A stretch of DNA of 64,000 bases from Dictyostelium discoideum (GCA_000004695.1 CM000151.3:544001-608000); one strand, 5' to 3'; numbered from the stretch's first letter, positions 19,854-58,458 are shown. Notes: generated from the letters alone by a model not told the origin. Made by a program: numbers and translations.

Positions 19854-20419
19854 TAGAATGTATAGTTATTGATGATGATGATGATGATGATGATGATGAG
19901 GGTAATTCCATTAAATCAACACATACATCAACACAATCTACTCCTATACGAGATAGAAGACAAAGGGATAATAAATGGACAATAAACCCTCTCCCACAAT
20001 TTCAAAGAGAAATTATTGATGTTGATACACCTTCTCCACCAAATGAATCATTATCAATAGTTTCACAAACTACAACTAATACTATTACTGATACCACTTC
20101 AATTCAAACACCAACATTAATTCGACAATCATCATCATTATTATCATCGTCATCATCATTATCACCATCAACTACTTCAACACCATTAACTCAAAATAAT
20201 ATTAATTTACAAAACGCTCAAGTAATTGCAACAATGACAGCGCCAATGGAAATTGAACTACCAACAATTGTCCAACTTGAACCATTATTTTCTTCTGAAT
20301 TCACAACATCAACTCAAAATTTATTTATTCAAACACCACCATTTACTTCAACTTTAACTCTACCTACAACTACAGCTCAAACATCACAAACTCTTTTTAC
20401 AATCCAAACTTCACATGAT

Positions 20420-20457
<38 letters not shown>

Positions 20458-21310
20458 TAAAAATAAAAATAAAAAAGAAATTGAAAAAGAAAAAGAAAAA
20501 CTACGAGAAGCTTTAAAACAAAAATTAAAAGAATATGAGAATGAAAATGAAAAAGAAAGAGAAAAAGAGAGAAAAAGGGAAAGAGAAATAGAGATAGAAA
20601 GAGAGAGAAAAGAAAGAGAAAGAAAAGAAAGAGAAAAAGAGAGAAAAAAAGAAAAAGAGAGGGAAAGAGAAAGAGAAGAAAGAGAGAGAAAAGAAATAGA
20701 AAGAAAAGAAAGAGAAAGAGAAGAAAGAGAAGAAAGAGAAAGAAAAGAAATAGAAAGAAAAGAAACAGAAAGAAAAGAAATAGAGAGAAAAGAAATAGAG
20801 AGAAAAGAAATAGAGAGAAAAGAAAGAGAAAGAAAAGAAAGAAAAGAAAGAGAAGAAAGAGAAGAAAGAGAAAGAGAAGAAAGAGAAAGAAAGGAAAGAG
20901 AAGAAAGAGAAAAAGAAATAGAAATGGAAAGGGAAAAAAAGAAAGAAAAGGAAAAGGAAAAGGAAAAGGAAAAGGAAAAGGAAAAGGAAAAGGAAAAGGA
21001 AAAGGAAAAGGAAAAGGAAAAGGAAAAGGAAAAGGAAAAGAAAAGAAAAGAAAATGAAGTAGAAAATGAAATAGAAAAAGAAAGAAGAGAGAAAAATGAC
21101 TCATATATGGTTTTAAATTATCACCATAGTATAGATGATCATCATTCAGAATCAGAATCAGAGTCTGACTCTGACCAAGACTCAATTTATTCAATTTCAA
21201 CACAAGAATTATCTTCTGTTATTAGTGATAATGATTTTTGCGATAGTGATAATGAAAAGGTGGCAAATAATAATAGGACCGTTGGTGAAACATTTTTAAA
21301 TGATAGTAGG

Positions 21311-21342
<32 letters not shown>

Positions 21343-21554
21343 TAATAATAATAAAAAAATTGAGAATGATAAAAATCAATTAATAGAAAGAGAAAGATTA
21401 ATTAGTGCATTTAACGATAAAGCATTTCTTTATGCACTCGATACAATTCGTGAAGTATTAGGTGGTATTGATTTTAAATTAAAGGTATCAAAAGAACAAA
21501 TCATCGAAATTAGCACGAATGCTAAAAAACCTTTAAATATATTATCTGAACCAG

Positions 21555-21597
<43 letters not shown>

Positions 21598-21599
21598 CC

Positions 21600-21649
<50 letters not shown>

Positions 21650-22153
21650 ACAACAAAAACAACTACCACAACAAATAATACCACTACCACTACAGCTGAA
21701 ACTGAAAAACCAAAAGAAGTATTTTTATTAAAGAAACCAATTAAAATACCATATGGTAGGGATTGTAAAAAAAGATTGATTAGAAGATTTCATGGAACAT
21801 CACGTAATCCATTATTTCATAAAAATTTAGAATCAACTCTTAAATTATTAAAGAGAGCGAAATTCGATTGGGCAAGTATAGAATTTGATACTAAATCTTA
21901 TTTAATGAATTGTAATTGTAAAACAGTCTGTCATAAATCTGAAAGAATGAAAGATAATCCTACAAATAAACTTCAAAATAATAATAGAAATAATAATAAC
22001 AATAATAATAATATTATTAATAATAATAATAATAATAATAATAAAAATAATAATAATAAAAATAATAATAACAAAAATAATAATAGAAATAATAATTCAA
22101 TTGCAAAGAAAATTGGAACTAATAATAATAATAATAATACTACTATTATTAAA

Positions 22154-39195: not shown

Positions 39196-39476
39196 ATGAT
39201 TAAAATATTTTTTTTTTTCATTTCAATTTTATTTTTAATAATAAATTTCAATTTTTCAAATGGAATCGTACCACCAATTGATGAATTTAATGCATTACAA
39301 AATCTAATTTTAAAGTTTAACCTCACAACGTTGGAAAATAAACCAATTACTGAAATTTGTAGTAATGATGTATCATGTAATCAAACAACTGGGTCATTTA
39401 TTATGTAAGTTTTTAAGATTTTTTATTTTATTTATTTTATTTATTTTATTTTATTTTTTTTAAATTGTGTATTAAT

Positions 39477-39522
<46 letters not shown>

Positions 39523-42500
39523 ATGGTAATAATTGGAAATAAAGAATATACACCAATTGGAGCAGAACTTATCCCATCGGATATACTTGGTTTTCCAAAT
39601 GTTTATAGATATGATTTTAGAGATTTACCAATAAGTTTTGAGTTTTTTTATTATAAAATTCAAAATGTGGTAACAATTACTTATAGAAACTTTACAGGTA
39701 TAAATGAAATAAATCAAACTTTACCAGGTTATAGAGAGATGTGAGTTTTTTTTTTTTTTTTTTTTTTGTGTTTTATATATTTATTTTTTGAAAAAACTAA
39801 CAGAAATTAATTGTTTTTTTATTAAAAAAAAAAGGTTTATAAGTTGTGATTGTCTTGATGGTTCAAATTTTAAAATGTCATATATTAATAAAAATACATC
39901 ACTTTTTCAACTTGATAAATCATATTTAAATTTAATTAATGATTCTCCAAATTTAAATAAATTATATTCATTAACATTAGGATTAAACAATCTTCCAAAT
40001 ATGTCAAATTATTATTTTAATAGTATGATTTTTTATTTTGGACCAAATTTCGATGTTAATTCATTTGGTTTAAATTATAAAACTATAAGGTCAGAGGTTA
40101 AAGAATTTAAATCATCAGATCCGGAAATGTATTTTCCCATTGAAGCTTTAGCAGATCAGGAAGTTTCATTGGTTGGAGGTTATACAATACGTTTTGATTT
40201 AAAATTTAGTCGTCCACAAGATAATAAGCTATTGAACATTTCAAATCAAAATATTCGTTTTATTACTTTTTCCAACCCTGGGAAATTTTTTAATATTGAA
40301 AGTAATTCATTACTTCAATTCCCTCTAATTCTAAACTATAATTGTAAACTTGTTGTTGAATATGGAACGATTTCTCAAACTGAACCAATTTCACAATTTG
40401 GTAATCCAAAGATTATTTCAATGAAACATTCAATTATTTCAGGTGATTTAGGTAAATATCAATTATCAAATCCTAATCAAGAAAGAATCTATGATTTTTC
40501 AGGTAATTCTATAACTGGAACAATTGATCAATCATGGTGTCATGCTATTTTACAAATTAGAGATAATAATATGACTGGTCCAATTCCATCATGTTTTTCT
40601 TGTTATTTTAATTCTCCATTAATTGATTCATCACTTGGTTCATACATTACTTTTTATGGAGCTTTCGAGGGAAACAACTTTACAAATTTATATCCCAATT
40701 TACCTTGTACAACATTTAAACCTCAAATTGAAAGACAATCTAACACAGCTTTAATTATTTACGGTAATGATATTGGTTTCAATGGAGTCTTGTATAAAAT
40801 AAATGGAACTATTAGTTGTAAAACCTATGAACCAATTGAATATGGTAAAAAATTTCTATTTACTACCAATAATAGCATTTCATTTGCCCATGTAAATTAT
40901 TTATCAATTAATTTTTTTTATCCATTTGATAAGGATTATTATTTCCCATTAATTTTTAGATCACCAATTATTGACTCTGTTTATTTTTCAAATGGTAAAA
41001 GTTTACAAGTTGATGGGTCTTACTTTTCAAGTTATTTGGGTCATGTCACACAAACAATCACTATATCAAATTATACATTTGAAATTTTTGATTCAAGTGA
41101 TTTCTTTTCAATTCAAGCAAATTCAACAAAATTAATTCCAGCTTCTTTAACAAATAAATTCGAATTATTAACTTTAACTACAAATTCAAACATTAAAAGA
41201 GTTTATGTAGATTTGGGTTCAAGAAATGATAAATTATGTAAAAATGATTGTATTGATAATGATCATGGTATTTGTAATTTAAATTTAGGTGTTTGTATAT
41301 GTTTAGATGATTTTATTGGTGATGATTGTTCACTTCCAAACTTTTTCATTACATCAGTTCAACCATCAACAACAAATGGTGGTGAAGCTATTTTCTTTGG
41401 TTCATTTTTAGAATTAACAAATAATATTTCATTAACAATTGGCGGAATAGATTGTCAAATTACATTAAATTCAATAGATACAATTAAATGTATAGCACAA
41501 CCTGGTAATGGTATTAAAACTATAATTTTAAAACAAAATGATAAAATATTCACTGGTGTTGGTATTTATAAATATATTGAATTATCAATACCATGTCCAA
41601 ATAAATGTTCAAATAATGGTATTTGTAATTCAACAACTGGAATTTGTAAATGTAAAAATGGATATACTTTATATGATTGTAGCGCATTAATTAATTTAGA
41701 TAATGGTTTAGGCAATAGTAATAATAATACAGGCGGTGGTGGTACAAATACAACAATTGACCCAGGTACAGGTTCAACAAATATTACAGATTCTCAAACT
41801 AATTTCCAAATTTATTTAAAATCATTAATTGAAGTAGATATTAATAATAATGAAGTTAAATCTTATTCATTATTAAAGAATTGGATATTTAATAAAACTG
41901 AAAATGAAATTGAACCAAATAAATATATATTAAAACAACAATTAGTAAATAATACTACTCCAAATTCAAATGGATGTATAATTACATCAACAATTGAAGA
42001 AATTAAAGATAAAAATGGTAAAGAATTTACATTTGCGGGTACATCATTCGTTGTTTCAAGTGGTTCAATTAAATTTACAATTTCAATTGCAAATTATACA
42101 TATCAAAGTAATTTAAATACTTTAAAATTAGAATTAATATCATCAGTTGATAAAATCGATAAAATTAATAATTGTAATTCAAAAGACACAGAAATCGATA
42201 CAACCAATGTAAATGATATATCAACATTTAATTATATCAAAATTTCAAAAAATAATAAAATTTTCTCTGCTAGATTCATTAATAAAGTATTGTCCGATGG
42301 TAGATCAACATTTTTTACAACAAGCGCAAGAAATGATTCAAATTCAATTATTGTATCATTAAATTTACCTCATTGTATTAATGAATGTTTAATTGATCCA
42401 GATTTTTCAGTTTTACTTACAAATGATTTCAAATCTGAATGTGGTGATGATGATTCATCTCGAAAATGGTTTTTACCTGTTGTAGTAGTTGTACCAGTTG

Positions 42501-42607
42501 TAGGTGTTGCTTTTATGATAATCATAATGTTTTTGATTTACAAAAGAAGTACAACACTAAAAATTATGTTACATGCTACAAAATTAAAAAAATTTAATCA
42601 CAAATAA
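39196..42607 (+). CDS. LRR/IPT/EGF type-I membrane surface protein, paralogue A. Three exons: 39196..39404, 39522..39740, 39835..42607.
   Basis: Signal peptide 'MIKIFFFFISILFLIINFNFSNG'. Donors at|GTAAGT and at|GTGAGT. Exon 3 has plant-type LRR text 'ITGTIDQSWCHAILQIRDNNMTGPIPSCFSCYFN', 'FEGNNFTNL', 'FPFDKDYYFPLI', two EGF-like modules ('CKNDCIDNDHGICNLNLGVCICLDDFIGDDCS' and 'CPNKCSNNGICNSTTGICKCKNGYTLYDCS'), the IPT/TIG-like 'ITSVQPSTTNGGEAIFFG...IKCIAQPGNGIKT', 'LSDGRSTF', 'LPHCINECLIDPDF', the TM segment 'LPVVVVVPVVGVAFMIIIMFLIY' and a KR-rich tail. Confidence 0.8.
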
Positions 42608-42997
42608 AATAAAAAAAATAATATTAATAAAAAAATCTTGGGCATTTATAATATTTTTATAAAATTAGTTGGTGTTGAAAACAATATAAATAATTATAAG
42701 TATCTTAATTATTATAATAATTGAAGTTAAAAACCACGTGGTTGTTTAATTTTTTATTTTTGTTGGGTTTTTTTTTTTTTTTAAAAATAAAAAATATCCA
42801 AAAAAAAATAATTTTGGAAACAAAAGAAAAAAAAAAAATTAAAAAATAATCAGAAAAGATATTTTATTTTTTTTAATTTTTTTTTTTTTTTTTTTTGATG
42901 CCAACATAGTTTTTGGGTTTACACCAAAAAAAAAAAAATTACCATTTTTTTTTTTATTTTTTTTTTTTGCGATAAACGAAACGATAGAATCAAAAAA

Positions 42998-43418
42998 ATG
43001 AATTCAATTTTTTTAATTTTTTTTTTAATTTCTATCAATTTTGGAATTTTCTCAACACTATCACCACCACAAAATGAATTAAATGCATTATATAGCCTAA
43101 TAAACAAATTTAACATTAAAATGTTTGGTGATAATCCATCACCAGAATATTTTTGTGTTGTTTATTATTGTTCCCCAATAACAGGTTCAATAATTGGACC
43201 GTAGGTCTCTCTATTTTTTTTTTTTTTTTTTTTTTTTTATTATTTCTGGTTATTAAAATTTTTTTTTTTTTTTTTTTTTTTAAATAGGTTTAAATTAATT
43301 GGGGATCCAAGTAATCAATCTAATGAAGTGATGACTCACTCTGATTTAAAGAACTTTACAAATATATCTTCAATGTATGTAAAAATAAATTAAAAAAGTT
43401 AGGGCCAATAAACTGATT

Positions 43419-43475
<57 letters not shown>

Positions 43476-43676
43476 AAGGGAATTAGTTTATTTTAAAATT
43501 GATGAAGAATTATTATATATTAAATTAAATAATGTTGAAAAGGTTGGTTTTATTTTTGTAAATGGGGTAAAAGAAATAAATAGAACCTTGGCAGATTATA
43601 AAGAGATGTAAGTAAAATTTATTTATTTATTTATTTATTTATTTTTTTATTTTTCAAATCCTAATACTTTTATTTT

Positions 43677-43720
<44 letters not shown>

Positions 43721-46511
43721 TAATAATATTAGAGTAATTGATAGTAGAGATTTAGAAAATAGTACATTTAAACTATCATATATTAATAATGATACTGCAA
43801 AATTTCAAATAAAGAATTCATTTTTGGAATTTGAAAATGATTTACCAGATTTACCATCATTAACAAATTTATTGTTGGAAATTAGAAGTTTACCAAATAT
43901 TTCTCAAATAAATCCTTACCAAGTTTCGTTTAGATTTAGTCCAGATTTTGATATTGGATCATTAAAATTAAATTTTCAAACTTTAAAATCACAATTAATA
44001 ACTATCTTAGATTCGAATGATTCAAATTTAATATATCCATGTGATTTCATAAAAGATCAATATGTTGGACAAAATGAAAAGAGTACTATTAATTTTGGCC
44101 TTAAATTTTTACCACCAATTGATGGTCATGTTATTGATCTATCAAATAAGAATATTGAATCTATATCATATACCAATGCTGGTAATGCTTTTAATATTGT
44201 TATAAATTCAAAATCAACATTCCCTATTTTGGTTGGTTATTATGTTAATGTTGCCCTTTTAAAAGGTAATATATCACAAACTATACCACTTTCACAATTT
44301 GGTAGAGGTGAAAGTATTTCAGTAATAGATTCAAAAATCAGTGGTGATTTGGATACTAATTATAGACCAACTGATGGAGTTGTAAGAAGACTTTATGATT
44401 TTTCAAATAATTTCATTACAGGTACCATTGATCCATCATGGTGTAATGCTCAATTAATAATTAGAAATAATAAAATGAGTGGTGAAGTTCCATCATGCTA
44501 TTCATGTTATTTTAACTATCCAATGCAATTAGTTAATAATCCAGATATTAAAGTTTTTTATGATGGATTTGAAGGAAATAATTTTACAAATTTAGAACAA
44601 AATCTTAAATGTACAACATTTGCTCCACAAATTGATAAAGATTCAGAAACCAGTTTAATTATTTCTGGTACTGATATTGGTTTCTATGGTGATAAGTTTT
44701 TAATACAAGATACTATGATATGTACAACATATCAAGTAATCGAATTTGGTAAAAGTTATAAATGTGGAATTCATCCAAGTTTTTCTTTTAAAGATTTAAA
44801 CTATATTAAAATTAATTTTAAATTCCCATTTGATAAAGATTATTATTTTTCATTAATTAATAGAGTACCAATGATAACATCAGTAACTTACTCAAATAAT
44901 AATTTACAAATTAATGGATCTTACTTTTCAAGTTATTTAGGTCATGTTCCACAAACAATTAGTTTATCAACTTTTACATTTGATATCTTAAATTCAAGTG
45001 ATTTCTTTTCTATCCAAGCAATATCAACTTTTAAAGTAGTTCCAAATCCAGGCTTCAATCTATTAACATTGAAAACAAATTCAAAGATTTCAAGAGTTTT
45101 CATTAATATGGCATCATTAGCAAATGATAAGTTATGTAAAAATAATTGCACAGATGACGACCATGGTGTTTGTAATTTATATTTAGGTACTTGTGTTTGT
45201 AATAATAATTATGAAGGTGATGATTGTTCAATTCCACAATTTTATATTACATCAGTTCAACCATCAACAACAAATGGTGGTGAAGCTATTTTCTTTGGTT
45301 TATATGGATATGACCTTAGTAATATTTCATTAACTATTAGTGGAATAGATTGTCCAATTACATTCAATTCATCAGATACAATTAAATGTATAGCACCACC
45401 TGGTAATGGTATTAAAACTGTAATTTTAAAACAAAATATTAAAATATTCACTGGTATTGGCATTTATAAATATATTGAATTATCAATACCATGTCCAAAT
45501 AAATGTTCAAATAATGGTATTTGTAATTCGACAACTGGAATTTGTAAATGTAAAAATGGATATACTTTATATGATTGTAGCGCATTATTAAATACAGATA
45601 TTGGTTTAGGCAATAATAATAACAATAATAATAATAATGGTGGTACAAATACAACAATTGACCCAGGTACAGGTTCAACAAATATTACAGATTCTCAAAC
45701 TAATTTCCAAATTTATTTAAAATCATTAATTGAAGTAGATATTAATAATAATGAAGTTAAATCTTATTCATTATTAAAGAATTGGATATTTAATAAAACT
45801 GAAAATGAAATTGAACCGAATAAATACATATTAAAACAACAATTAGTAAATAATACTTCTACAACTTCAAATGGATGTATAATTACATCAACAATTGAAG
45901 AAATTAAAGATAAAAATGGTAAAGAATTTACATTTGCGGGTACATCATTCGTTGTTTCAAGTGGTTCAATTAAATTCACAATTTCAATTGCAAATTATAC
46001 ATATCAAAGTAATTTAAATACTTTAAAATTAGAATTAATATCATCAGTTGATAAAATCGATAAAATTAATAATTGTAATTCAAAAGACACAGAAATCGAT
46101 ACAACCAATGTAAATGATATATCAACATTTAATTATATCAAAATTTCCAAGAATAAAAATATTTTCTCTGGTAGATTCATAAATAAAGTATTATCTGATG
46201 GAAGATCAACATTTTTTACAACAAGCGCAAGAAATGACTCAAATTCAATTATTGTGTCATTAAATTTACCACATTGTATTAATGAATGTTTAATTGATCC
46301 AGATTTTTCAGTTTTACTTTCAAATGATTTCAAATCTGAATGTGGTGATGATGATTCATCTCGAAAATGGTTTTTACCTGTTGTAGTAGTTGTACCAGTT
46401 GTTGGTTTTGCTCTTATTTTAATTATACTTTTAATAATTTATAAAAAAAGTACAACATTTAAAATAATACTGCACGCCACAAAATTAAAAAAATTAAAAA
46501 ATAATAAATAA
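42998..46511 (+). CDS. LRR/IPT/EGF type-I membrane surface protein, paralogue B. Four exons: 42998..43198, 43288..43374, 43479..43607, 43733..46511.
   Basis: Same architecture as A, with one extra intron (A's exon 2 is split). Signal peptide 'MNSIFLIFFLISINFGIFS'. Donors cc|GTAGGT, at|GTATGT, at|GTAAGT. The last about 430 codons are nearly identical to A and C. Confidence 0.8.
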
Positions 46512-46622
46512 ATATTTCATCATTTATATTATTTTTTATTTTTATTATATTTTTTTCTTATGATTTTATTACAAAGTTTAAGAATTAAGAATCTTTTTTT
46601 TTTTAATAAAATAATAATATTA

Positions 46623-49019
46623 TCAATTAAATTTATATTTAATTAATTTTTCATTTGAAAAGAATTTAGAAATCTTGATTGCACCTCTTTGAAGTGAAAA
46701 AAGTAAAAAAGATTTTAATTCTTGGTTACTGAATATTCCACCATCTGATTTTTCCTTTAAAATGAAATGTAAATTTTGATTAATGTATTCAAAAATTTGT
46801 AATTTTGAATTTGATGTAATATACTCCATAAATGAATTAACCAAAACTTTAATTAAAAATCTTTGATCTTGGGCAGAATTGGATAATGAAGAATCACTGT
46901 GATACTTTTCGATAATTGTTAAAAACCAATTTAAAAATTTAAAATTATTAATTTCATATAAATAGGGAGTGAATTGGTTAACATCGTTTAATAAGAGTCT
47001 TAATCTTTTAATATAAACATCATAATCCTTTTCTTTACTATTATAATATTTATTAACACTGCTGTTGTTGTTGTTATTGAAATCAAATCTATCGATTGCA
47101 ATGAGTAAATGATATTGATATATTTTTGGATTCAAAGAGAATAAACCATCACCATTTTTCAATTCATCATTATAATTTGTATACACCCAATCTATAAATT
47201 TAAAAAACTCATTTGGATAAGAGGATTCCACGATGTGTACTATTTGGTCCATTGGTTGCTTCACAAAAATATTTGCATTAATTACCAAATCTCTTAATGT
47301 TTCATATCATATTAAAAGTTTATATGATAATCCTGAAGTAGTGTATAAATGGAATGACCATTCAAACCCTAATTTATCATTATCGTAGAGTTTTGGATTA
47401 GAACCAAAATGATGTACAAAATCAGCATAATTTTTATTTAAATTCCAAATAATTTATTCGATCTCCAAAGTATCCATAAACTATAAAGCTAATAAGACTA
47501 CTACCACCACCACCACTATTTCTACAACTTGACGGATTTACTGATTTTGATTTATAAAATAATGATTCAAAATGTTTTAATAATTCTAAATTTTTATAAA
47601 ATGTACTGATGTAATTATCATAAACAATATCTTTAAAGTAATTAGATTGATTGTAAAATAAAAATTCTAACACCTCTATTGATTCGATATAATAGGTTGG
47701 TGGAAGTAATAATTTGTCTAAAGTTATTTGTAGATGATTACCAACTTTATTTGAATAATATTTCACCAACTCCGTATCATTATGAATTACAAGCATACAC
47801 AAGAAATAATAACAACAACAACTCTGAAATTCAAGGTCAGGTTGTTTAATTATTCTTTTAACTATTTCATCAATGAATTTAATCTTTTTCTCTTTATTAA
47901 AACAATGTGAAAATAAAATTTTAAATTCTTCATCAGTTGTTTTACCATTATTAAATTGAATAATATTTGGTAATAAATTTTGAAAACCCTGTTTATATCC
48001 ATTTGTTTCATATGATTCTAAAATTTCATAAATTCCTAATCTAACCGTAATTTCAAGTAAATCACAAGAAGGATATATAGTTTTATAATGACCATCATTG
48101 GATTCTTCATGATAATAACAGAAATATAAAAAATTTGATATTTCATGACCAAATATTGAATGATTTAATTTTAACAGTTTCTTTATAAAATTTTTAATTT
48201 CTTCATTATTATTGAAATTTATTGGATCATTTAATAATGATTTTAAATTAACTTTATTAATTTTCTTTGTGAAATTATCAATTTCTTCAATTGTTACAAT
48301 TGGTTTTTCTTCTTCTTCTTTTGGTGGTGTTTTTAATTTTAAAATCAATATTGCAGTGTTGACTAATGCTTTTAATGTTGATTTTTCATTAATGTGATAG
48401 AATTTCGAATATTCTCCTTTTGTAGTGCAATTAATTAATAATTGATAATATTGATTTCTATCATAATTATGATCATGAGCAATGTAATTTAAATAACATA
48501 ATAACCCTTTGAAAAAATTATTTTCTTGATTTATTTGGCAACTACATCTTGAACAGAAATATTTAAAATCACTATAATTTTTATCTAATAATAAAAATGA
48601 GTTTACTGAATTTAATTCTACAACTAGATATTTAATGAATTTATTTGATCCATTAATAATTGAATGCAAAAGATCTGTTTTTGTTGGTACATAGTTGAAT
48701 TCGTTTACAAATAATTTAAAATTTTTAATTTCTTTGATTCAATTAATGCATACACTACATCTTGTGATGAATTGTAATAATCATTCTCTATATTAAAAAA
48801 GTTTCTATAGAATCTATAATCGTCATGAATAATTGTTGAAAATAGTTTCACTAAATCATCTACATCTAAAGTACAACTATTAGAAAATTGATGTGAATCG
48901 AATTGTAAATATCTACAATTTCTATAAACTTTTTCTTTTAATATACTAAATTGATTTGAATTGATAAGATCTTTAATTGACGATATTGAATCATAACTCG
49001 ATGAGAATTGCTTATCCAT
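46623..49019 (-). CDS. Hypothetical protein with no recognisable domain, apparently fragmented into three collinear ORFs (49019..48705, 48669..47434, 47288..46623) by two frameshifts and one in-frame TGA. Possible pseudogene or unresolved gene model.
   Basis: Hand translation shows ORF 1 ending '...KILNYL*'. The next ORF is open in the -1 frame straight through the junction ('IKNFKLFVNEFNYVPTKTDLLHSII...'), and the track's 'M' there is a TTG. At the second junction the 411-aa frame ends 'EFK*', while the +1 frame is open ('NLNKNYADFVHHFGSNPKLYDNDKLGFEWSF...KLLI') up to a single TGA, then continues into the 221-aa ORF (again a TTG 'start'). The junction regions are not AT-rich enough for Dictyostelium introns and lack phase-compatible GT..AG pairs. 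Confidence 0.45.
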
Positions 49020-49474
49020 AAATGAGAATATCTTTTTATAAATTACTTTATTTCTAAATAATTTCCAAAATAATTTTTCAGTTATTATTCATTGTTGTGT
49101 TATAATTCCCCAAAATAAATAAAAATTAAAAAAAAAAAAAAATTTCTAAGATATTTTAAAAAAAATTTTAACACTAAAATAAAAAAAAAAAAAATTACAT
49201 TTTAATATCCCATCATTTTCTAATCTGCAAAAATGAAAAAATAACATTAAAATATAAAAACAAAAAGAATTTTTTTTTTTTTTTTTTTTTTTTATTATTA
49301 TTTTTATTTATTAAAATTATATATTTCATATTTATCATAATCTTCACCAATCACTAGCACTCATATATACCTTCACCAATAATAATAATAATAATATTAA
49401 TAATATTATAAAGGTGGTTGGGTGTTGAAAAGTAATTTTATGCGGCGCTGGTAGTACCAAAAGATATTTCGGTT

Positions 49475-49505
<31 letters not shown>

Positions 49506-49662
49506 GTCAAAAATACGAAAATACAAAAAACCACCGTTTGAAAAGTGGTTTTTGTGACGTACAATTTTAGTTTTTTATTTTTTTGATATTTTTTTTTTTT
49601 AAAATTTGTGCTTGTATTTTTTTTATTTTCACTTTTTTTATTTTTTATTGGTAGTGGAAAAA

Positions 49663-49910
49663 ATGATACTATATTATTTATTTATCTTCTTTTCTTTTCT
49701 TTGTTTTTTTTCATTTGGGATTATTCCTCCTGAGAATGAACTTCTTGCTTTAAATAATATTGTACAAAAGTTTAATCTTTCAATTGGTAATCAACCAAAC
49801 CCTGATTATTGTTCAATTTTTATCTGTAGTCAAACAAATGGATCACTTATAGATACGTTTGTATTCAAAAATAAATTCTAATTATACATTTCTAAAAATA
49901 AAATTCTAAT

Positions 49911-49943
<33 letters not shown>

Positions 49944-50055
49944 GTCTTTATTTATTAGCTAATTCTATTGAATACACACCAATTGGTGCAAAGATCGCTG
50001 TATCAGATTTAAAACAATTTACAAGTGTTTCTTCAATGTAAAAAACAAAAATTAA

Positions 50056-50118
<63 letters not shown>

Positions 50119-53100
50119 TATAAACTTTTTACTTATTATTTTTTTATTTTTTTTATTTTTTTTTTCAGATTTTTAAATGGATTTGAAATTGAATATGAAT
50201 TTATTTATCACAAATTCGAAAATTGTCAAACCCTTTATTATATTGAAACTAGGGGAGCAATGGTGATAAATAAAACGTTACCCGATTATGCATCAATGTA
50301 AGTTTTTGATTTTATTTTTTATTTTTTGTTTTTTTTATTTTTTTATTAAATTAATAATATGTAATATATATTTTATAAATGTAAAAATTATTAGAAATAT
50401 TGATTGTAAAGGATTAGAAGGTACAGAATTTAAACTATCTTATATTAGCTCAAAAACACATAGTTTCAATATATATGGAGGGAACGTAAACTTTATAACT
50501 GATGTTCCAAAGCCAACATTTTTTCAAAATTTACGTTTAAAAACAAAAAACATACCAGATTTAAAAAAAATTGTATTTGAAAATTTAATTATAAATATTG
50601 ATAAAGATTTCAATACCAGTTCATTATCAGCGTATTATAATACAATTGGAGCGAAATCGACTTCACTATTAAATGATGATAGAAATAATGGACCAAATTT
50701 ACCAAGTGAATTTTTAGGTGATAGATGGGTTTCAAATGATAAATATAGGGACAATTTAGATGTGAATGGTTTTTTAGCTCCAATTAATAATGAGCAAATT
50801 GATTTAACAGAATTGAAGTATTCATTATTAGATTTTAGAAAAGCAGGTCAATTATTCAACATTCAACAAAATTCAAAAAATGTATTCCCAATTAAAACTG
50901 GAAACAGTACAACATACTTGAAATTCCATAATGGAAATATTTCTCAAATTTACCCACTTTCCCAATTTGGAAAAGCTTCATTTATCTCTGTAGTAAATTC
51001 AAGTATTACTGGTGATTTAGGCCCATATGAGCCAAATAATGGATTTCCTACAAGACTTTATGATTTTACTAATAATGCTATAACTGGAACAATTGATCAA
51101 TCATGGTGTAACTCTGTATTGATAGTTAAAAACAATAGGATGAATGGTACAATTCCATCCTGTTTTACATGTTATTTTGATTTTCCAATAATGCTAGTAG
51201 ATAATCCAAGTGCCAGTACTATTTATGAAGCATTTCAAGGAAATAGCTTTGATAATTTAAATACAAATATTAAATGTACAACTTTTGCTCCACAAATTGA
51301 AAAAATTCGAGATAAGGCTCTACATATTTTTGGTAATGATATTGGTTTCGATAGTACTTTCTATAAAATAGATGATATTGGAATATGTAGTTCCTATAAT
51401 ACTATCGAATTTGGTAAAAGCTATGAATGTATAAGTAATAATTATTCATTTAAAGATTTAAAATATATTAAATTTAATTTTAAATATCCATTTGATAAGG
51501 ATTATTATTTCCCATTAATTAAAAGATCACCAATTATTAGCTCTGTACATTTTTTAAATAATAACAATTTACAAGTAAATGGTTCTTATTTTTCAAGTTA
51601 TTTAGGTCATGTTTCTCAAACTATTACTATTTCAAATTTAATATTTGAAATTTTAGATTCAAGTGATTTCTTTACAATTCAAGCAACTCCAATTCAAACA
51701 ATTCCAATTGAAAAACTTGAATACCCTGAAAATACAAATACTTTTGATTTATTAACTTTAAATACAAATTCAAAGATTACAAGAGTTTACATTAATCCAT
51801 CTTCAATTAATGATAAAATATGTAAAAATGATTGTACTGATAATGATCATGGTATTTGTAATTTATATTTAGGTGTTTGTGTTTGTTTAAATGATTTTAT
51901 TGGTGATGATTGTTCGAATTCAAAATTTTTCATTACATCAGTTCAACCATCAACAACAAATGGTGGTGAAGCTATTTTCTTTGGTTCATTTTTAGAATCA
52001 ATCAATACTATTTCATTAACAATTGGTGGAATAGATTGTCCAATTACATTCAATTCATCAGATACAATTAAATGTACAGCACAACCTGGTAATGGTATTA
52101 AAACTGTAATTTTAAAACAAAATGATAAAATATTCACTGGTATTGGCATTTATAAATATATTGAATTATCAATACCATGTCCAAATAAATGTTCAAATAA
52201 TGGTATTTGTAATTCAACAACTGGAATTTGTAAATGTAATAATGGATATACTTTATATGATTGTAGCGCATTATTAAATACAGATAATGGTTCAGGTGGT
52301 AATAATAACAATGGCGGTACAAATACAACAATTGACCCAGGTACAGGTTCAACAAATATTACAGATTCTCAAACTCACTTTCAAATTTATTTAAAATCAT
52401 TAATTGAAGTAGATATTAATAATAATGAAGTTAAATCTTATTCATTATTAAAGAATTGGATATTTAATAAAACTGAAAATGAAATTGAACCAAATAAATA
52501 TATATTAAAACAACAATTAGTAAATAATACTGCTCCAAATTCAAATGGATGTATAATTACATCAACAATTGAAGAAATTAAAGATAAAAATGGTAAAGAA
52601 TTTACATTTGCGGGTACATCATTCGTTGTTTCAAGTGGTTCAATTAAATTTACAATTTCAATTGCAAATTATACATATCAAAGTAATTTAAATACTTTAA
52701 AATTAGAATTAATGTCATCAGTTGATAAAATCGATAAAATTAATAATTGTAATTCAAAAGACACAGAAATCGATACAACCAATGTAAATGATATATCAAC
52801 ATTTAATTATATCAAAATTTCAAAAAATAATAAAATTTTCTCTGGTAGATTCATAAATAAAGTATTATCTGATGGAAGATCAACATTTTTTACAACAAGC
52901 GCAAGAAACGATTCAAATTCAATTATTGTATCATTAAATTTACCACATTGTATAAACGAATGTTTAATTGATCCAGATTTTTCAGTTTTACTTTCAAATG
53001 ATTTCAAATCTGAATGTGGTGATTCATCTCGAAAATGGTTTTTACCTGTTGTTATAGTTGTACCTGTTTTGGGCGCAACTATACTTTTTATAGTTTTCTT

Positions 53101-53179
53101 TATACTCTATAAGAAAAGTACTACACTTAAAATTATGTTGCACGCTGCAAAATTAAAAAAATTAAATACCAATAAATAA
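49663..53179 (+). CDS. LRR/IPT/EGF type-I membrane surface protein, paralogue C. Four exons: 49663..49856, 49945..50037, 50169..50297, 50395..53179.
   Basis: Signal peptide 'MILYYLFIFFSFLCFFSFG'. Donors ac|GTTTGT, at|GTAAAA, at|GTAAGT. Exon 4 begins 'NIDCKGLEGTEFKLSYI', parallel to A ('FISCDCLDGSNFKMSYI') and B ('VIDSRDLENSTFKLSYI'). The C-terminal 430 codons are nearly identical to A and B. Confidence 0.8.
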
Positions 53180-53227: not shown

Positions 53228-53472
53228 TTAAACTTTATTTAAAGTATAACCTGTTCTAACGACATTTGGTGTGTAAGCACGTGAACAAGTCTTACACCAC
53301 CAACGAAATTTATCATGTTTCCATGCAGGTGCCAACCCACATCTAGTACAATTTGGTATTTGTTGTAATGAGTCAGATTGATTATTTAAACAATTTTGGT
53401 TATTTTGATTTGTAATAATGGTATTTTGTGAATAATTATTATTATTAGTAGTATTATTATTAATATTATTAT

Positions 53473-53509
<37 letters not shown>

Positions 53510-53510
53510 A

Positions 53511-53595
<85 letters not shown>

Positions 53596-54494
53596 TATTA
53601 TTATTATTATGAATATTTAAAAGGGTGTGATTATTACCATTATTATTTGTTTGATTGTGGGCTCTATTTGAATTCATTTGGGCGATATTGAATTCACTAT
53701 CGGTAGCTCGTTTATATATTCTATTTTCGATTGGTATGAATGCTTTATTACAATTACGACAGTAGTAACGTTTTTTATCATGTTTCCAACTGGCAACTCT
53801 ATTACAATATGCACAATTTGGTAATTCATTTACTACATTTGATGTTTGGGAATTTGGTGACGTTGGTGTTGGAGATGTTGGTGTTGAATTATCACTATTA
53901 CTATTATTATCATTATCACTATGATTACTATTATTAACAATATTATTATTGTTATTATTAATATTGTTACTATTACTATTATGGTTTATTTTATTATTTT
54001 TATTATTATTTACAAGGTTATTAAAACCAGAAGAAGCTAATTTAATTTCACCATTTTTATTTAAAGTACTTCTGGTAATTATTGACTCTAAGACAATTTT
54101 TGCATCTTTCATTGAGATATTGGATGGTAATGTACCTCCTAATCTTCTAATTTCGGAACAAATTTCTGGAAATGTTAATTTACAAATATCTTCAACTTTA
54201 AAGTTGGAAATTTCAGGAACTGATTGATTATTATTTTTATTATTAATTGGATTTGGATTTGGATTTGGGTTTGGATTTGGTGTATTATTACTACTGTTAT
54301 TATTGTTATTATTAATGGTATTTATATTTTGATTATTTGAAAAATCATTATTAATTGTATTGTTAAAATTATTATTATTATTATTATTATTATTGTTATT
54401 AGTATTATTATTATTATTATTATTTTGGTGATTATTTTTATTAATATTTTGGTTGTAATTGGCATTCATATTTTTGAAATTACTATTAATAATT

Positions 54495-54529
<35 letters not shown>

Positions 54530-54957
54530 TAAATTATTTATTGAAATCGATTGTTGATTGTATTGAGTTTTTGGTTGAATAATATTTTGAATTTGTGGTT
54601 GATTAGATTTGGAGTGTAGTGGTGGTGAAAATTGTGAATTGTTTACAAGTTGAGGTGAACTTAATGGTTGAAGTGATTGTGGAAGAGGTAGAGGTGGTGG
54701 TGAATGTTGTTTATGATAATAAACATTCTGATAATGATATAATGGAGGACTATATGAATGTTGTAATTGATGTTGTTGTTGAATTTCTGGTGATTGAGGA
54801 ATTTGTTGTAAATTATTATTATTATTATCAATTTCATCAATATGGTGGTTATTATGATGATAATTATGATGATGATGATGATGTTGTTGATTATGATTAT
54901 GATGATGATGATTATGATGATATTGATGATGGTTATATGTATAAATTGGATGTTGAT

Positions 54958-54989
<32 letters not shown>

Positions 54990-55171
54990 CTATTAATGTT
55001 AATTTGATTACGAAGGTCGTTAGATTTATTCAAATTTTTATTATTGTTAAAAACCCAATTTGAATTATCGTCGTCATCGCCAATATCATTATTATCATTT
55101 AATAAAAAATCAATTCTTTGTTTTTTAAATGATCTATTATAACTATTAATATCACTTAAAAGCTCCTCCAT
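53228..55171 (-). CDS. H/N/Q-rich nuclear-type protein (647 aa) with two C-x2-C-x14-C-x2-C zinc-ribbon motifs sharing an unusual 'SWKHDK' core. Putative DNA/RNA-binding zinc-finger protein.
   Basis: Motif 1 is 'CAYCNRVASWKHDKKRYYCRNCNKAF'. Motif 2 is 'CTRCGLAPAWKHDKFRWWCKTCSRAY', at the extreme C-terminus. A central non-repetitive block reads 'ISNFKVEDICKLTFPEICSEIRRLGGTLPSNISMKDAKIVLESI'. The rest is poly-N, poly-H ('HHQYHHNHHHHNHNQQHHHHHHNYHH') and (NP)n. Confidence 0.6.
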
Positions 55172-55899
55172 TTTTTTTTTTTTTATTTATTTTATTTATT
55201 TGCAAAAAAATTTATTTATTTTATTTATTTTTATTTTATTTATTTATATTTTTTTTTTTTTTTTGTATTTAAATTTTATTTTTATTATTTTTATTAATCG
55301 TTTTTGATTGAGTTTAAAAATAAAACAAAATAAAAATAAAACAGAGATTGATTTATAAAAAAGGAAATTTTTATTTTATTTTTTTTTTTTTTTTTTTTTT
55401 TTGTTTACAAAATCGATTTTTAAAAATAATTATAAAAGAAGAAAGTGGGGGAAGTAAAAAAAAAAAAAAAAAATAAAAAAAAATTTGTTTAATGATTTTG
55501 AAAAAATAAAAATTATACAAAAAGGAACGGATTATAGTGTAGTTTAATATTTGTATTGGAAGACAATAATTAAAAAAAAAATATAATAATTTAATTAAAA
55601 AAAAATGATAATAATAATAATAATGATAATAACCACACAAACACAAAATTGCTCTACAATTTATTTTATATATCTGTATATTATTTTTATAAATTAATAT
55701 CTATATATAAATTTATATTATTTGTTCTATTTATTGCTATTAAATATTTATTTTAAATTTTATTTTTATTTTTAACTTTTATTTATTTATTTTTTTTTTT
55801 TTTTTTTTTTTTAATTTATAAATAAAATTTTTTTGGATAGCAAATTGTTTAAAAAAAAAATATATAAAAAAATATAAAAATAATAGTATGGCAACTATT

Positions 55900-56191
55900 A
55901 ATTTAATAAATGGTGGTGGTGGATGGTGGTAGTGTGAGTTGAAAAGGGGGGGGTGTGTGAATGTCAATAATGGAAAAAGAAATGTGATTCCAAAATTTTG
56001 TTGTTTTTATGTTGTTATTGTTGCTGTTTTGAAATGAGAGTAAAAATTTACTTTTATATTAATAGTTTATTTTTATATCAAATATATTTGGTTGAGCAAT
56101 AAAAAAAAAATAAAATAAAATAAAAATAATTAAAATAAAATATTGAAGAGAAAGAATGAGGGGTATAGTCTAGTTTTTTAATAGCATCCAA

Positions 56192-56242
<51 letters not shown>

Positions 56243-56800
56243 AAAAAAAAATAAAATATTGTATGTGAGGGTGTTGGTTTGTGTCAATAAAAAAAAAATT
56301 TGTGGTTGACATCTCACACAACAACTACATGCTAACATAAAAATATGGCACCATTTAAAATAATAATATTAAAAAAAAAAAATAAAAAAATAATAAAAAT
56401 AAAATAAAATTTGGTAAGTGCAATAGAGTGGGCTTGGAAGAAGGTGTAATTTTTTTTTTTTTTTTTTTTGAGTGGTTTCGAAATTTGGGGTTGGTTGAGT
56501 GTTGGTTATATATTAAATGGGTGTGTTTTTATTTTTTTTTTCTTTTTTTTTTTTTTTTTTTTTGTTTTTTGGTAGATATATGCTCGTTCTAAATTTTTAT
56601 AGTAATTTTCAAATGTGTGGGTTGTAGAAGGTATTATTAACACAGTTGGTATTATTAAAGATAAAAATAATTTTTATTTAACTCGACCACCCCACAATCT
56701 ACTACCATTGTGAATTGTTCTTTTCTATTATTATAAATTTTTTTTTATTAATGTGGGGTCTTAATTTTAAAATGCCTCCCCACTTTTTTTTTTTATCTCA
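55900..56800. promoter_or_regulatory. Second set of G/T-rich, C-poor islands in a roughly 2-kb intergenic region (GTGTG / GGTGG runs and 'atgtgagggtg')
   Basis: The sequences 'ggtggtggtggatggtggtagtgtgagttgaaaagggggggg', 'gtatgtgagggtgttggtttgtgtc' and 'gagtggtttcgaaatttggggttggttgagtgttgg' have the same flavour as 26711-27090. Confidence 0.25.
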
Positions 56801-57250
56801 ATTATATCTAATTTTAATTTCGATCACACCTCTCTGGGGTTAAAAAAAAAAAAAAATAGAAAAAAAAAAAAAAAAAAAAAAATCAATAAAAAAAAAAAAA
56901 AAAAAAAAAAAAATCAAAAACCAAAAATAAAAAAAAAAAAATAAAAACAAAAACACCCATTTTATGTAAAAAATTAATAAAATTGTAAAAATAGGATATT
57001 TATTCCCAAATTAATACACATTTTTTTTTTTTTAATATTTTATTTTTATTATTTAAAATTTTTTTTTTTTTTTTTTTTTTTAGATTTTGAACATTATTAA
57101 ATAATAATAATAATAATTATACTATTTTTTTTTTGTGCTTTTGAATTGGAGAAAAAAGAAAAAAAAAAAAAAAAAACCTATTAATAAAATATTCGAGATG
57201 TGATTTTTTTAAGAAAAAAAAAAAAACCAAAAATAAAAAATAAAGGAAAA

Positions 57251-58458
57251 TTAAAAATAACTAACTAATAATAAAAATTTTAATACATACAATACGAAAG
57301 TACCGGATTTAGCCTTCACTGATCCAGTTGAAGAAGATTTTTTCTTTGTTCCTTGGAAATCGGTATTGAAAAAGTTTTGTTGTTGATTTGGATTATTTGA
57401 ATTTGTTTGCTGTATAGTTGAAACTTGTGAATAATCAAATGAGACAAATTGTTGTTGTTGTTGTTGTGGTTGTTGTGGTTGTTGGGATGGTTGAATTGGT
57501 TGTTGTTGAGATGGTTGTTGTTGTAATGTTTGTTTAGATTGTTTTTTAGAAACAACGCCGCTAGTTGTTGTAGTTATAGTAGTTGATGATGATGATGATG
57601 ATGCTAATGATTGAGTTTGTTGTTGAATTTGTTGAGGTATTGATTGTATTTGAGATTTATTAGATTGAGTTGATGTATTTAATTGTGGCGATGGTTGTTG
57701 TGGTTGAGATAATGTTGATGTTGTTGTTGTTGTTGCTGTTGCTGATGATGCTGGTTGTTGTTGTAATTGTTGTGAAACTGGTTTAAAAGAATCAGCAGAT
57801 TGTTCATTATTAATCCAACCAATTTCTTTCAAGAATGAAAAAGTATCAGTGACAGAAGCATTTTCATCTTTTTTAGATTTTGGTGGATTATTAGTTGAAT
57901 CTAATAAAGATGATGGTGAAGTTGATAGTGAAGTAGTTGCAGAAATTGATGAATTTTCTTTTAACTTTTTCTTTTCTTTATTTCTTCTTCTATTCATATT
58001 TGATAATTGATAAATTTCTTGCATACTCTTTGGAACTTGATTATTATTTAAATTTGAACTACTTGTATTTGCAGTGGTGGTCGTGGTGGTTGTAGTTGTT
58101 GAATTAGAAGTTGATGTTGAATCATTTGAATGTTTAGAATCTTTTTCGTCATCACTTTCATCATCAATATCTTCATCCTCCTCATCATCTTCGTCATCAT
58201 CTTTATTATTATTATTATTGGTACTTTCATCATCGTCATCTTCTTCGTCATCATCATCATCGTCGTCGTCGTCATCACTTTCCTCATCACCATTTGAAGC
58301 CCCTGTTCCACCTCCTCCACCACCTGTATTACCTGATCTTCTTGAAGATTTTGAAGATTTTGAAGATTTATCATCATCATCATAATCCATTTCATCATTA
58401 TCATCATTTCCACTTACACCACCTGTAATTTCACTATCTTGATTATTATCACCATCGC

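Follow-up and report, generated by a model that had tools for sequence, protein, structure and literature searches.

In clustered protocadherin variable exons and in the tomato Cf-4/Cf-9 LRR receptor-like genes, conversion homogenises the membrane-proximal ectodomain beside a diverged, ligand-specifying distal part, and positive selection on the variable part has been documented in Cf-9-type genes. The three tandem paralogues described here (genes A, B and C) resemble these systems in their homogenised membrane-proximal ectodomain and diverged distal part, but they differ in fold and organism and comprise only three copies. In dictyostelids, the tgr family (Transmembrane, IPT, Ig E-set Repeat) is defined by repeated IPT/Ig E-set domains, and its paralogues are reported to undergo interlocus conversion or recombination (bioRxiv 10.1101/2025.10.22.684067). 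At the tgrBC locus (tgrB1/tgrC1), polymorphism is extreme, genes turn over by birth and death, and hotspots resist alignment (PMC12745789). The cell-communication gene comC, on the other hand, is found only in group 4 and encodes a protein with a signal peptide, a TM segment and EGF domains, and its mutant aggregates aberrantly (PMC4931340, PMC2873529). No description of segmental concerted evolution in the ComC family was found in the literature searched.

The window analysed, a stretch of 64,000 nucleotides from chromosome 2 of D. discoideum AX4, contains three same-strand (+) paralogues with the positions and exon numbers that the first-pass annotation had given. Gene A (DDB_G0271634, 39196..42607) encodes a ComC-family type I membrane protein of 1066 aa in three exons (39196-39404, 39522-39740 and 39835-42607; a hand model with GT..AG sites), without any difference from ACTFIT_002175. 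Gene B (DDB_G0271636, 42998..46511) has four exons set by splice sites (42998-43200, 43288-43374, 43479-43607 and 43733-46511) and encodes 1065 aa with a signal peptide; its residues 100-1024 match the AX4 protein at 100%, and the reference model begins at an internal Met. Gene C (DDB_G0271638, 49663..53179; 1066 aa) likewise has four exons with splice sites (49663-49856, 49945-50037, 50169-50297 and 50395-53179), its model being exactly P0033 / DDB_G0271638, and the models of A and C agree with independent annotations. The proteins are uncharacterised and annotated as 'hypothetical protein', and their gene identifiers were not found in the literature searched. An uncharacterised gene outside this family, DDB_G0271542 (46623..49019, minus strand), is inserted between B and C; it has no match in Pfam, is found in AX4, FIW, FIR and FIY and is missing from FIZ, CIT and the firmibasis locus, and exchange of A or B with C bridges an interruption here. 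The pairs of antisense ORFs pointed out earlier (45257/51943, 45448/52134 and 46133/52807) were found in place with matching lengths, and follow trivially from the identity of the sense strands.

Judged by their domain matches, A, B and C belong to the ComC family and not to the tgr family that had been named as the local precedent. When the ComC family architecture in Pfam (PF24141 / PF24142 / PF24143 / PF22933) was tested, all three proteins were found to carry LRR_ComC, two ComC beta-sandwiches and ComC_SSD (E about 1e-113). The ComC supersandwich domain (PF22933) scored 374-380 bits, with the cut-off at 24, and was matched in full (positions 1-222 of 222), and LRR_ComC (85-101 bits), Beta-sand_1st (84-95) and Beta-sand_2nd (90-93), each with a cut-off of 27, followed one another in the canonical order. 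Like ComC, the proteins thus have all four ComC-specific domains in the same order and far above the cut-offs, and they share its type I topology, with a hydrophobic N-terminus as signal peptide and a single TM at roughly residues 1020-1047; however, they are separate paralogues, and the other family members found were only 31-54% identical. From the N-terminus, a signal peptide and the LRR head are followed by two beta-sandwiches, the EGF, TIG and second EGF modules, a supersandwich resembling galactose mutarotase and GLMP (SSD), one TM helix and a tail of ~22 residues. EGF_2 exceeds its gathering score of 22.1 in B (28.8 bits), C (27.2) and barely in A (22.4), and the single TIG match in each protein (16.2-20.6 bits) stays under the gathering cut-off of 20.9. 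Like tgr proteins, they are type I surface glycoproteins of dictyostelids, encoded in tandem clusters and with an IPT/TIG-like fold, but in place of repeated IPT domains they have this one sub-threshold match together with the LRR head, beta-sandwiches, EGF modules and supersandwich. The AF2 model suggests a solenoid followed by beta-sandwiches. The description of the head as a plant-type LRR region received modest structural support, the best LRR match being the BRI1 ectodomain (Foldseek E about 1e-5), although no generic LRR family of Pfam was matched.

Within AX4, the divergence between the paralogues changes strongly along the genes. The paralogue dS is 0.8-0.9 (~0.85) in the LRR, 0.4-0.6 (~0.5) in the beta-sandwiches, 0.05-0.09 in the core and 0.33-0.58 in the TM/tail. 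The anticipated identity step is present: in a max-chi-square analysis of third codon positions the mismatch drops from 0.42 to 0.11 (permutation p<=0.0005), and the breakpoints at the 5' and 3' edges both reach p<=0.0005. Near-identity from the first EGF module to the protein end, put at about 430 residues by eye, holds at 87.5-90% over about 455 residues, but the strict core is only about 345 codons (about 1.04 kb, aa identity 93.6-95.6%). This core tract lies at 41428..42463 in A (+ strand), where it spans the C-terminal part of TIG, EGF2, a poly-N/G linker, the ComC supersandwich domain and an acidic juxtamembrane stretch, and is marked by genome-specific fixed sites. By codon-alignment mapping it corresponds to 45326..46364 in B (+), with site statistics as in A, and to 52012..53032 in C (+), where the AF2 model predicts a supersandwich. 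It could be argued that such near-identical 1-kb segments were collapsed or copied in the AT-rich AX4 reference, whose annotation is imperfect here (the A and B models are N-terminally truncated), and Dictyostelium genomes are difficult to assemble (PMC12745789). We find an artefact of this kind hardly credible, given that the AX4 core copies differ at about 2% of nucleotides, in runs, that in an AX4 re-assembly (ACTFIT) the B and C proteins are identical and the A product includes the truncated reference model unchanged, and that architecture and pattern recur in six other long-read assemblies.

The orthologous arrays of AX4 and six other genomes were compared in an alignment of 20 sequences. 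In neighbour-joining trees of the core the copies cluster by genome, with bootstrap values of 100% for CIT, 100% for FIZ and 84% for FIY, and the firmibasis pair also groups together, whereas the N-terminal part upstream gives orthologue clades (bootstrap 100/100/100%). Between AX4 and D. citrinum the core has 52 genome-specific sites vs 1 orthologue-type site, and at 50-55 sites all three paralogues of one genome are alike and all three D. citrinum copies are different. Genome-type sites common to all three copies are absent upstream of about A40859 (AX4-CIT, AX4-FIZ, FIW-CIT and FIZ-CIT), where orthologue-type sites number hundreds; one lies in A40859-41146 and two to four in A41147-41266. 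Correspondingly, the p-distance of EGF2+SSD between paralogues of one genome is 0.012-0.027 in all six genomes vs 0.083 between AX4-CIT orthologues (dS 0.29), and for the LRR the relation is reversed (paralogues 0.42 vs orthologues 0.23). The seven genomes thus bear out the proposal of a concerted-evolution block beside an independently and fast-diverging N-terminal ectodomain.

Without any ongoing conversion, the 3' block could be alike through strong purifying selection, a low mutation rate or one ancient partial duplication. Constraint is indeed strongest in the SSD (omega 0.1-0.25), where conservation across the ComC family also peaks and its nearly invariant columns cluster. However, when CIT orthologues are compared with those of AX4 or FIZ, four-fold sites in the core differ at 0.14-0.20, but paralogues in one genome differ there at only 0.015-0.071, and the core is not a mutational cold spot because its four-fold sites accumulate differences between species at close to the normal rate (AX4-CIT 0.196, N-terminal part 0.263). 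Nor can a single ancient event explain why, in every lineage, paralogues are more alike than orthologues. Genome clades (84-100% bootstrap) occur in several independent lineages, and the sites counted above set the three copies of one genome apart from those of D. citrinum; a wrong assignment of orthologues is opposed by the conserved synteny and the N-terminal tree. We therefore consider an explanation without conversion very improbable. Interlocus gene conversion accounts for the pattern, and it is to be preferred over crossover because the order TruD-A-B-C has been kept in all discoideum and citrinum genomes (six genomes). A signature of GC-biased conversion, which is frequent and not obligatory, is missing, GC3 being 0.06-0.09 in the core vs 0.09-0.14 upstream. 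In AX4, FIW and FIR, the three genomes nearest to one another, the core is still largely of orthologue type, with 3-5 genome-type vs 15-17 orthologue-type sites, and conversion is therefore infrequent and not continuous.

The edges of the tract are less simple than the single sharp boundary at EGF1 that was expected; instead, a pair-specific staircase was observed, with steps at about A40400 and then at about A41221-41428, A and C being homogenised from EGF1 on and B only from A41428, within TIG. The mixed zone (A 41221..41427, + strand; B45116-45325, C51805-52011) takes in EGF1 and the TIG domain's N-terminal part; there, homogenisation involves A and C, and B keeps lineage-specific patches in all genomes, at A41303-41347 and A41403-41425 (A numbering). 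Pairwise informative sites of genome type vs orthologue type number 87 vs 5 for A and C, 24 vs 131 for A and B and 29 vs 124 for B and C. The exchange is a pair-specific mosaic, in which A and C exchange through EGF1-TIG despite the presence of B and, in some lineages, the inserted gene between them; unlike in the protocadherin and Cf-4/Cf-9 genes, it is strongest between non-adjacent copies. Upstream, the independent head in the last exon (A 39836..41220, + strand; B43734-45115, C50396-51804) holds LRR_ComC and the two ComC beta-sandwiches, with a paralogue dS of 0.4-0.9 and omega of 0.4-1.0, and genome-type sites are a small minority there in the pairwise counts. A few orthologue-type sites remain inside the core (A41801-41806 and A42256-42259). 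At the 3' edge, the genome-type sites end at A42463 and orthologue-type sites begin again at A42484, so that the end of the tract coincides exactly with the ectodomain/TM junction, which is another difference from the protocadherin and Cf-4/Cf-9 systems. The TM helix and cytoplasmic tail (A 42464..42604, + strand; about B46365-46505 and C53033-53173) had been placed within the homogenised block, but identity falls at this junction and in AX4 they lie outside it. Despite the high dS of the TM/tail, the protein sequence of the tail is fairly well conserved. C has a TM of its own in all genomes, and A and B have a common TM in FIZ and D. citrinum, the two lineages in which exchange between A and B reaches the TM.

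Omega, close to 1.0 in the first LRR repeats, declines along the proteins to the low values of the SSD; thus, the LRR head is near-neutral (0.5-1.0) and the SSD core strongly constrained. These are Nei-Gojobori estimates from a genome of about 22% GC, and the LRR comparisons may carry synonymous saturation or bias. It was suggested earlier that such a pattern reflects self/non-self diversification, that is, an allorecognition or adhesion system in which the LRR heads, as in tgrB1/tgrC1, are polymorphic cues subject to diversifying or balancing selection and conversion keeps the signalling stalk uniform. The heads do evolve fast at the protein level, with single-gene omega values up to 1.3-1.4 in exons 1-3 (small counts) and a dN 5-10 times that of the housekeeping neighbours; the proteins are surface proteins of group-4 dictyostelids from the family of comC (PMC4931340, PMC2873529), and in the beta-sandwiches fixed replacements were weakly in excess in an MK-type contrast (ratio 2.13, uncorrected p=0.017). 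However, positive selection of the kind known from Cf-9 was not detected in the head: no omega window was significantly >1, the MK-type ratio of the LRR was 1.05 (p=0.82; 3-6 genomes only, with limited power), and other non-housekeeping neighbour genes have a similar omega (0.35-0.7). Old balanced alleles are not indicated either, because the AX4-FIW dS of A, B and C (0.07-0.105) is not above that of the flanking housekeeping genes (0.10-0.17). Comparison of strain alleles did not help the suggestion, as other isolates of D. discoideum, with their '93% alleles', belong to generally diverged lineages (PMC12745789) with that same flanking dS. Also, the orthologues are strictly 1:1, in conserved order and following the species tree, with background-level synonymous divergence, unlike the turnover and unalignable hotspots of tgrBC (PMC12745789), and tgr-like exceptional strain polymorphism was not seen at this locus in 3-6 genomes, which give limited power. 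We consider an allorecognition system of this type unlikely.

It is very likely that the locus is an old tandem triplication of a ComC-family gene in which a membrane-proximal ectodomain tract has been homogenised by interlocus gene conversion, separately from the head and the TM/tail. The triplication is older than the split of D. discoideum and D. citrinum, and the split of A from B/C is older than D. firmibasis. Since the triplication, each lineage has homogenised a tract of about 1.0-1.25 kb on its own and again and again. This happened by non-crossover conversion, which left the number and order of the copies intact, as well as their diverged 5' halves and distinct TM/tail ends, and it was episodic, on a timescale of roughly dS 0.05-0.1. 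The tract may have persisted because of the strong purifying selection on the SSD, which would keep the copies similar enough for recombination to continue, and the near-neutral LRR head would have diverged long ago past the identity needed for conversion.

What the common tract does may be considered from its predicted fold. The AF2 model of C 51998-53038 (pLDDT 82) is supersandwich-like and resembles GLMP, the accessory subunit of the MFSD1 transporter (PDB 8r8q and 6nyq), but sequence identity is only 8-9%, GLMP is without LRR, EGF and TIG modules, homology to the A/B/C core is unproven, and the idea of a shared partner is an analogy; beyond the EGF modules the proteins have no sequence-level match to any solved structure. 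From fold resemblance and constraint patterns, A, B and C might present distinct ligand-binding heads on one common stalk, which, by analogy with the supersandwich and transporter of GLMP, would touch either a cis partner common to all three or the copies themselves; through its paralogue-specific TM and tail, each copy would have interactions of its own at the membrane or in the cytoplasm. With conversion homogenising a stalk beside a diverging head, the trio adds a clear new case to a process that is already well known.

The three same-strand tandem paralogues A (DDB_G0271634), B (DDB_G0271636) and C (DDB_G0271638) very probably descend from an old triplication of a ComC-type receptor, in which the membrane-proximal ectodomain has been kept uniform by recurrent interlocus gene conversion. 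Gene B matches DDB_G0271636 of D. discoideum AX4 at 100% identity, A and C were assigned by cluster look-up, and the existing annotation of all three is merely 'hypothetical / EGF-like domain-containing protein'. The gene models in this AT-rich window (GC approximately 22%) were rebuilt from GT..AG sites and homologue alignments, giving exons at 39196-39404, 39522-39740 and 39835-42607 for A (1066 aa), at 42998-43200, 43288-43374, 43479-43607 and 43733-46511 for B (1065 aa), and at 49663-49856, 49945-50037, 50169-50297 and 50395-53179 for C. The models of A and C agree residue for residue with independent annotations (ACTFIT_002175 and DDB_G0271638, respectively). In the AX4 reference, A (996 aa) and B (1024 aa) are each modelled from an internal methionine without the signal-peptide exon, omitting 39196-39404 and 42998-43123; the newer annotation of the AX4 re-assembly, ACTFIT, already carries the 1066-aa form of A. 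All introns are in phase 2 and, as the first-pass annotation had noticed, their positions differ between the copies: the second intron of B and C has no counterpart in A, whose single 219-nt exon (39522-39740) is represented by two exons flanking a phase-2 intron in B (87 and 129 nt, 43288-43607) and C (93 and 129 nt, 49945-50297), which is either intron loss in A or a gain in the ancestor of B and C. Intron 2 of C contains a long (AAT)n microsatellite at 50058-50118. All three proteins begin with a signal peptide and end in a basic tail of some 22 residues, which follows the one transmembrane (TM) helix (approximately residues 1020-1047).

The genes had been suggested to be tgr-like, but a Pfam search placed them elsewhere. 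In all three, LRR_ComC is followed by the first and second ComC beta-sandwiches, EGF, TIG, EGF and the ComC supersandwich domain (E ~1e-113), with the TIG represented by one weak match per protein under its cut-off. Judged by this domain order, A, B and C belong to the ComC family and not to tgr, whose members are by definition built of repeated IPT/Ig E-set domains (bioRxiv 10.1101/2025.10.22.684067). The developmental gene comC, restricted to group 4, encodes a protein with a signal peptide, EGF domains and a TM, and its mutant aggregates aberrantly (PMC4931340, PMC2873529). No mention of the three gene identifiers was found in the literature searched, and a sequence search of solved structures gave matches at the EGF level only. 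A fourth ComC-family gene (ComC_SSD E=4e-54, EGF, weak TIG) lies on the minus strand at 13803-15788, with upstream exons to approximately 16.2 kb, 23 kb upstream of the trio and in the opposite orientation. With only ~34% identity to C over the C-terminal half, it is too diverged to be a conversion partner.

Within AX4, BLASTN of each pair gave a single alignment of 2.1-2.3 kb at ~85% identity and, outside coding sequence, nothing beyond low-complexity matches. In sliding windows, nucleotide identity rises from 45-60% in the LRR to 75-90% over beta-sandwich 2, EGF1 and TIG and to 93-100% from about A41444 to A42430 (the letter before a coordinate names the gene), and falls to 70-80% at the gene end. 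The proteins are 44-46% identical upstream of EGF1 and 87.5-90% identical over the remainder, with 93.6-95.6% inside the strict core, so that the identities estimated in the first-pass annotation were roughly right. Synonymous divergence (dS) between paralogues follows the same course, starting at 0.8-0.9 (LRR) and dropping through 0.4-0.6 (beta-sandwiches) and 0.06-0.11 (TIG) to 0.05-0.09 (EGF2 and the supersandwich), before it climbs to 0.33-0.58 in TM and tail. The TM and tail, which had been included in the homogenised block, therefore lie outside it. Breakpoints were located with a maximum-chi-square test on third codon positions only, with permutation p values. The 5' step (mismatch ~0.42 to 0.11) falls at A41264 for A-B, A40838 for A-C and B45162 for B-C, the 3' step (~0.08 to 0.5) at A42494-42515 (p<=0.0005 for all of these), and a weaker additional step lies near A40400. 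The proposed sharp boundary is thus a real step, but the profile is a staircase with edges specific to each pair. The repeated antisense ORF pairs pointed out earlier are present, yet merely mirror the sense-strand identity.

Comparison with orthologous arrays demonstrates concerted evolution of the block. We drew on long-read assemblies published by Holland et al. (PMC12745789), namely ACTFIW and ACTFIR (D. discoideum strains), ACTFIY and ACTFIZ (possible cryptic species), D. citrinum and D. firmibasis, across which the synteny TruD, A, B, C is kept. In EGF2 and the supersandwich, within-genome paralogues differ by p = 0.012-0.027 in every genome, compared to 0.083 (dS 0.29) between AX4 and D. 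citrinum orthologues; in the LRR the relation is reversed (0.42 between paralogues, 0.23 between AX4 and D. citrinum orthologues). Sites were called genome-specific when all three copies of one genome had a state different from the other genome, and orthologue-type when a difference between paralogues was common to the orthologues of both genomes. Between AX4 and D. citrinum, the core (A41428-42463) has 52 genome-specific sites and 1 orthologue-type site, whereas upstream of about A40859 there are none of the former against hundreds of the latter. Neighbour-joining of the N-terminal part gave three orthologue clades with 100% bootstrap, whereas the core gave genome clades (D. citrinum 100%, ACTFIZ 100%, ACTFIY 84%). 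The two D. firmibasis copies pair together in the core tree and are sisters of B and C, respectively, in the N-terminal tree, which implies that A would predate the D. firmibasis split; no A-like copy was seen in the D. firmibasis locus examined. At that locus, the B-like gene RB653_009883 (1-3790) is annotated as 1532 aa with FNIP repeats fused N-terminally, probably a merged gene model.

The same homogenisation is replayed independently in at least five lineages. At four-fold sites, AX4 and D. citrinum differ by 0.196 in the core and 0.263 in the N-terminal part, and the paralogues of one genome are only 0.015-0.071 apart in the core. This rules out a mutational cold spot or synonymous constraint, and one ancient partial duplication is unable to explain such a contrast between orthologues and within-genome paralogues. 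Biased gene conversion was rejected as well, since no rise in GC3 was found in the converted tract. Copy number and order are preserved and the sequence is diverged on both sides of the tract, which points to non-crossover gene conversion, not unequal crossing-over. Among AX4, ACTFIW and ACTFIR the core has 3-5 genome-type and 15-17 orthologue-type sites, with B and C of AX4 pairing; because the core is only partly re-homogenised among these close genomes, conversion is episodic, on a scale of dS ~0.05-0.1.

The core common to all three copies maps to A41428-42463, B45326-46364 and C52012-53032. Upstream of it, in EGF1 and the first part of TIG (A41221-41427), the A-C pair has 87 genome-type versus 5 orthologue-type sites, exemplified by a two-residue insertion common to the A and C copies of D. 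citrinum, and the B-specific patches 'NYEGDDCSIPQFY' and 'GLYGYDLS' are kept in every genome, D. firmibasis included. The A-C exchange bridges the intervening B and, in some lineages, also DDB_G0271542 (46623-49019, minus strand), which is uncharacterised, matches no Pfam domain and belongs to a small family confined to Dictyostelium. This fast-evolving gene (71-80% amino acid identity between strains) is a lineage-specific insertion: AX4, ACTFIW, ACTFIR and ACTFIY carry it between B and C, and ACTFIZ, D. citrinum and D. firmibasis lack it there. At its 3' edge the tract stops between codon R1019, where A42463 is the last genome-type site, and codon V1026, where A42484 is the first of orthologue type, coinciding with the junction of ectodomain and TM. 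The TM of C is distinct in all genomes, and A and B have a common TM in ACTFIZ and D. citrinum. Beyond C, the minus strand carries a 647-aa N/Q/H-rich ORF (53228-55171) with no Pfam match, in which a CxxC...WKHDK...CxxC motif, zinc-finger-like in appearance, occurs twice ('CAYCNRVASWKHDKKRYYCRNC' and 'CTRCGLAPAWKHDKFRWWCKTC'). Positive GC skew of 0.36-0.45 at 54001-58000 and AT skew of 0.44 at 20001-22000 probably come from strand-biased low-complexity coding sequence.

The diverged N-terminal part had been taken as a sign of self/non-self diversification, and strain comparison, dN/dS and a McDonald-Kreitman (MK)-type test did not bear this out. Orthologue omega declines from ~1.0 in the first LRR repeats of the last exon, via 0.4-0.7, to 0.1-0.25 in the supersandwich, is 0.57-0.83 in exons 1-3 pooled, and in no window of the orthologue comparisons is significantly above 1. 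The database holds 'alleles' from other isolates that are 85-93% identical. Hyper-polymorphism of the locus was nevertheless rejected, as the assemblies are diverged lineages or cryptic species and AX4-ACTFIW dS is at background (0.07-0.105 in A, B and C, 0.10-0.17 in flanking housekeeping genes). The contrast lies in dN (omega 0.25-0.55 versus 0.02-0.07), and several neighbouring non-housekeeping genes are as fast as the trio. In the MK-type contrast of three D. discoideum strains (ingroup) with D. citrinum (outgroup), the ratio was flat in the LRR (1.05, p=0.82); in the beta-sandwiches (40706-41220 and the equivalents in B and C) fixed replacements were in weak excess over polymorphic ones (2.13, uncorrected p=0.017). 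Positive selection in the LRR was thus significant neither by windowed omega, nor in exons 1-3, nor in the MK-type test. Because the LRR result is flat and the beta-sandwich signal weak and uncorrected, diversifying or balancing selection on the head (LRR and two beta-sandwiches) is not demonstrated, and relaxed constraint explains its evolution equally well.

The boundaries would be accounted for most economically by a feedback loop, in which purifying selection on the supersandwich would keep the copies similar enough for further recombination, and the weakly constrained head would have diverged past the identity needed for conversion. The conserved B patches amid exchanged sequence and the exact coincidence of the edge with the ectodomain/TM junction suggest that convertants overwriting paralogue-specific determinants are also removed by selection. 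Based on fold and constraint, the proteins may present three different LRR heads on a common stalk touching a shared partner, with paralogue-specific TM and tail; the partner is proposed by analogy with GLMP, a lysosomal membrane protein that is an accessory subunit of the MFSD1 transporter. It seems rather improbable to us that the trio forms one recognition device, in which conversion would be favoured by selection since all three heads must dock, via identical GLMP-like supersandwiches, on one shared membrane partner or on each other as a heteromer, and in which lineage-specific cell-cell recognition would reside in the near-neutral LRR heads and the EGF1/TIG patches peculiar to B, as a ComC-based intercellular recognition system in group-4 dictyostelids that would not depend on tgr.

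That conversion acts on segments of tandem receptor genes is well known, for example from protocadherin clusters and Cf-9-type LRR genes. The genes of the trio were already annotated; what is new is the documentation of such conversion for the ComC family and for this locus, of which no earlier account was found in the literature searched (comC with lagC, the gene identifiers, Dictyostelium gene conversion). As a case of concerted evolution restricted to particular domains in a surface-receptor cluster of a protist, the trio is unusually clean and fully resolved, with pair-specific tracts and edges mapped to a few codons. Phylogenies and orthology calls from the C-terminal half of A, B and C will mislead, and present evidence gives no ground for listing the locus as tgr-like or as a candidate for allorecognition. 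The paralogues are kept different at the EGF1/TIG patches of B and in the TM and tail, and the ComC supersandwich with its juxtamembrane module is predicted to be the part critical for function, probably through partner binding, in an uncharacterised family whose founding member acts in developmental cell-cell communication.
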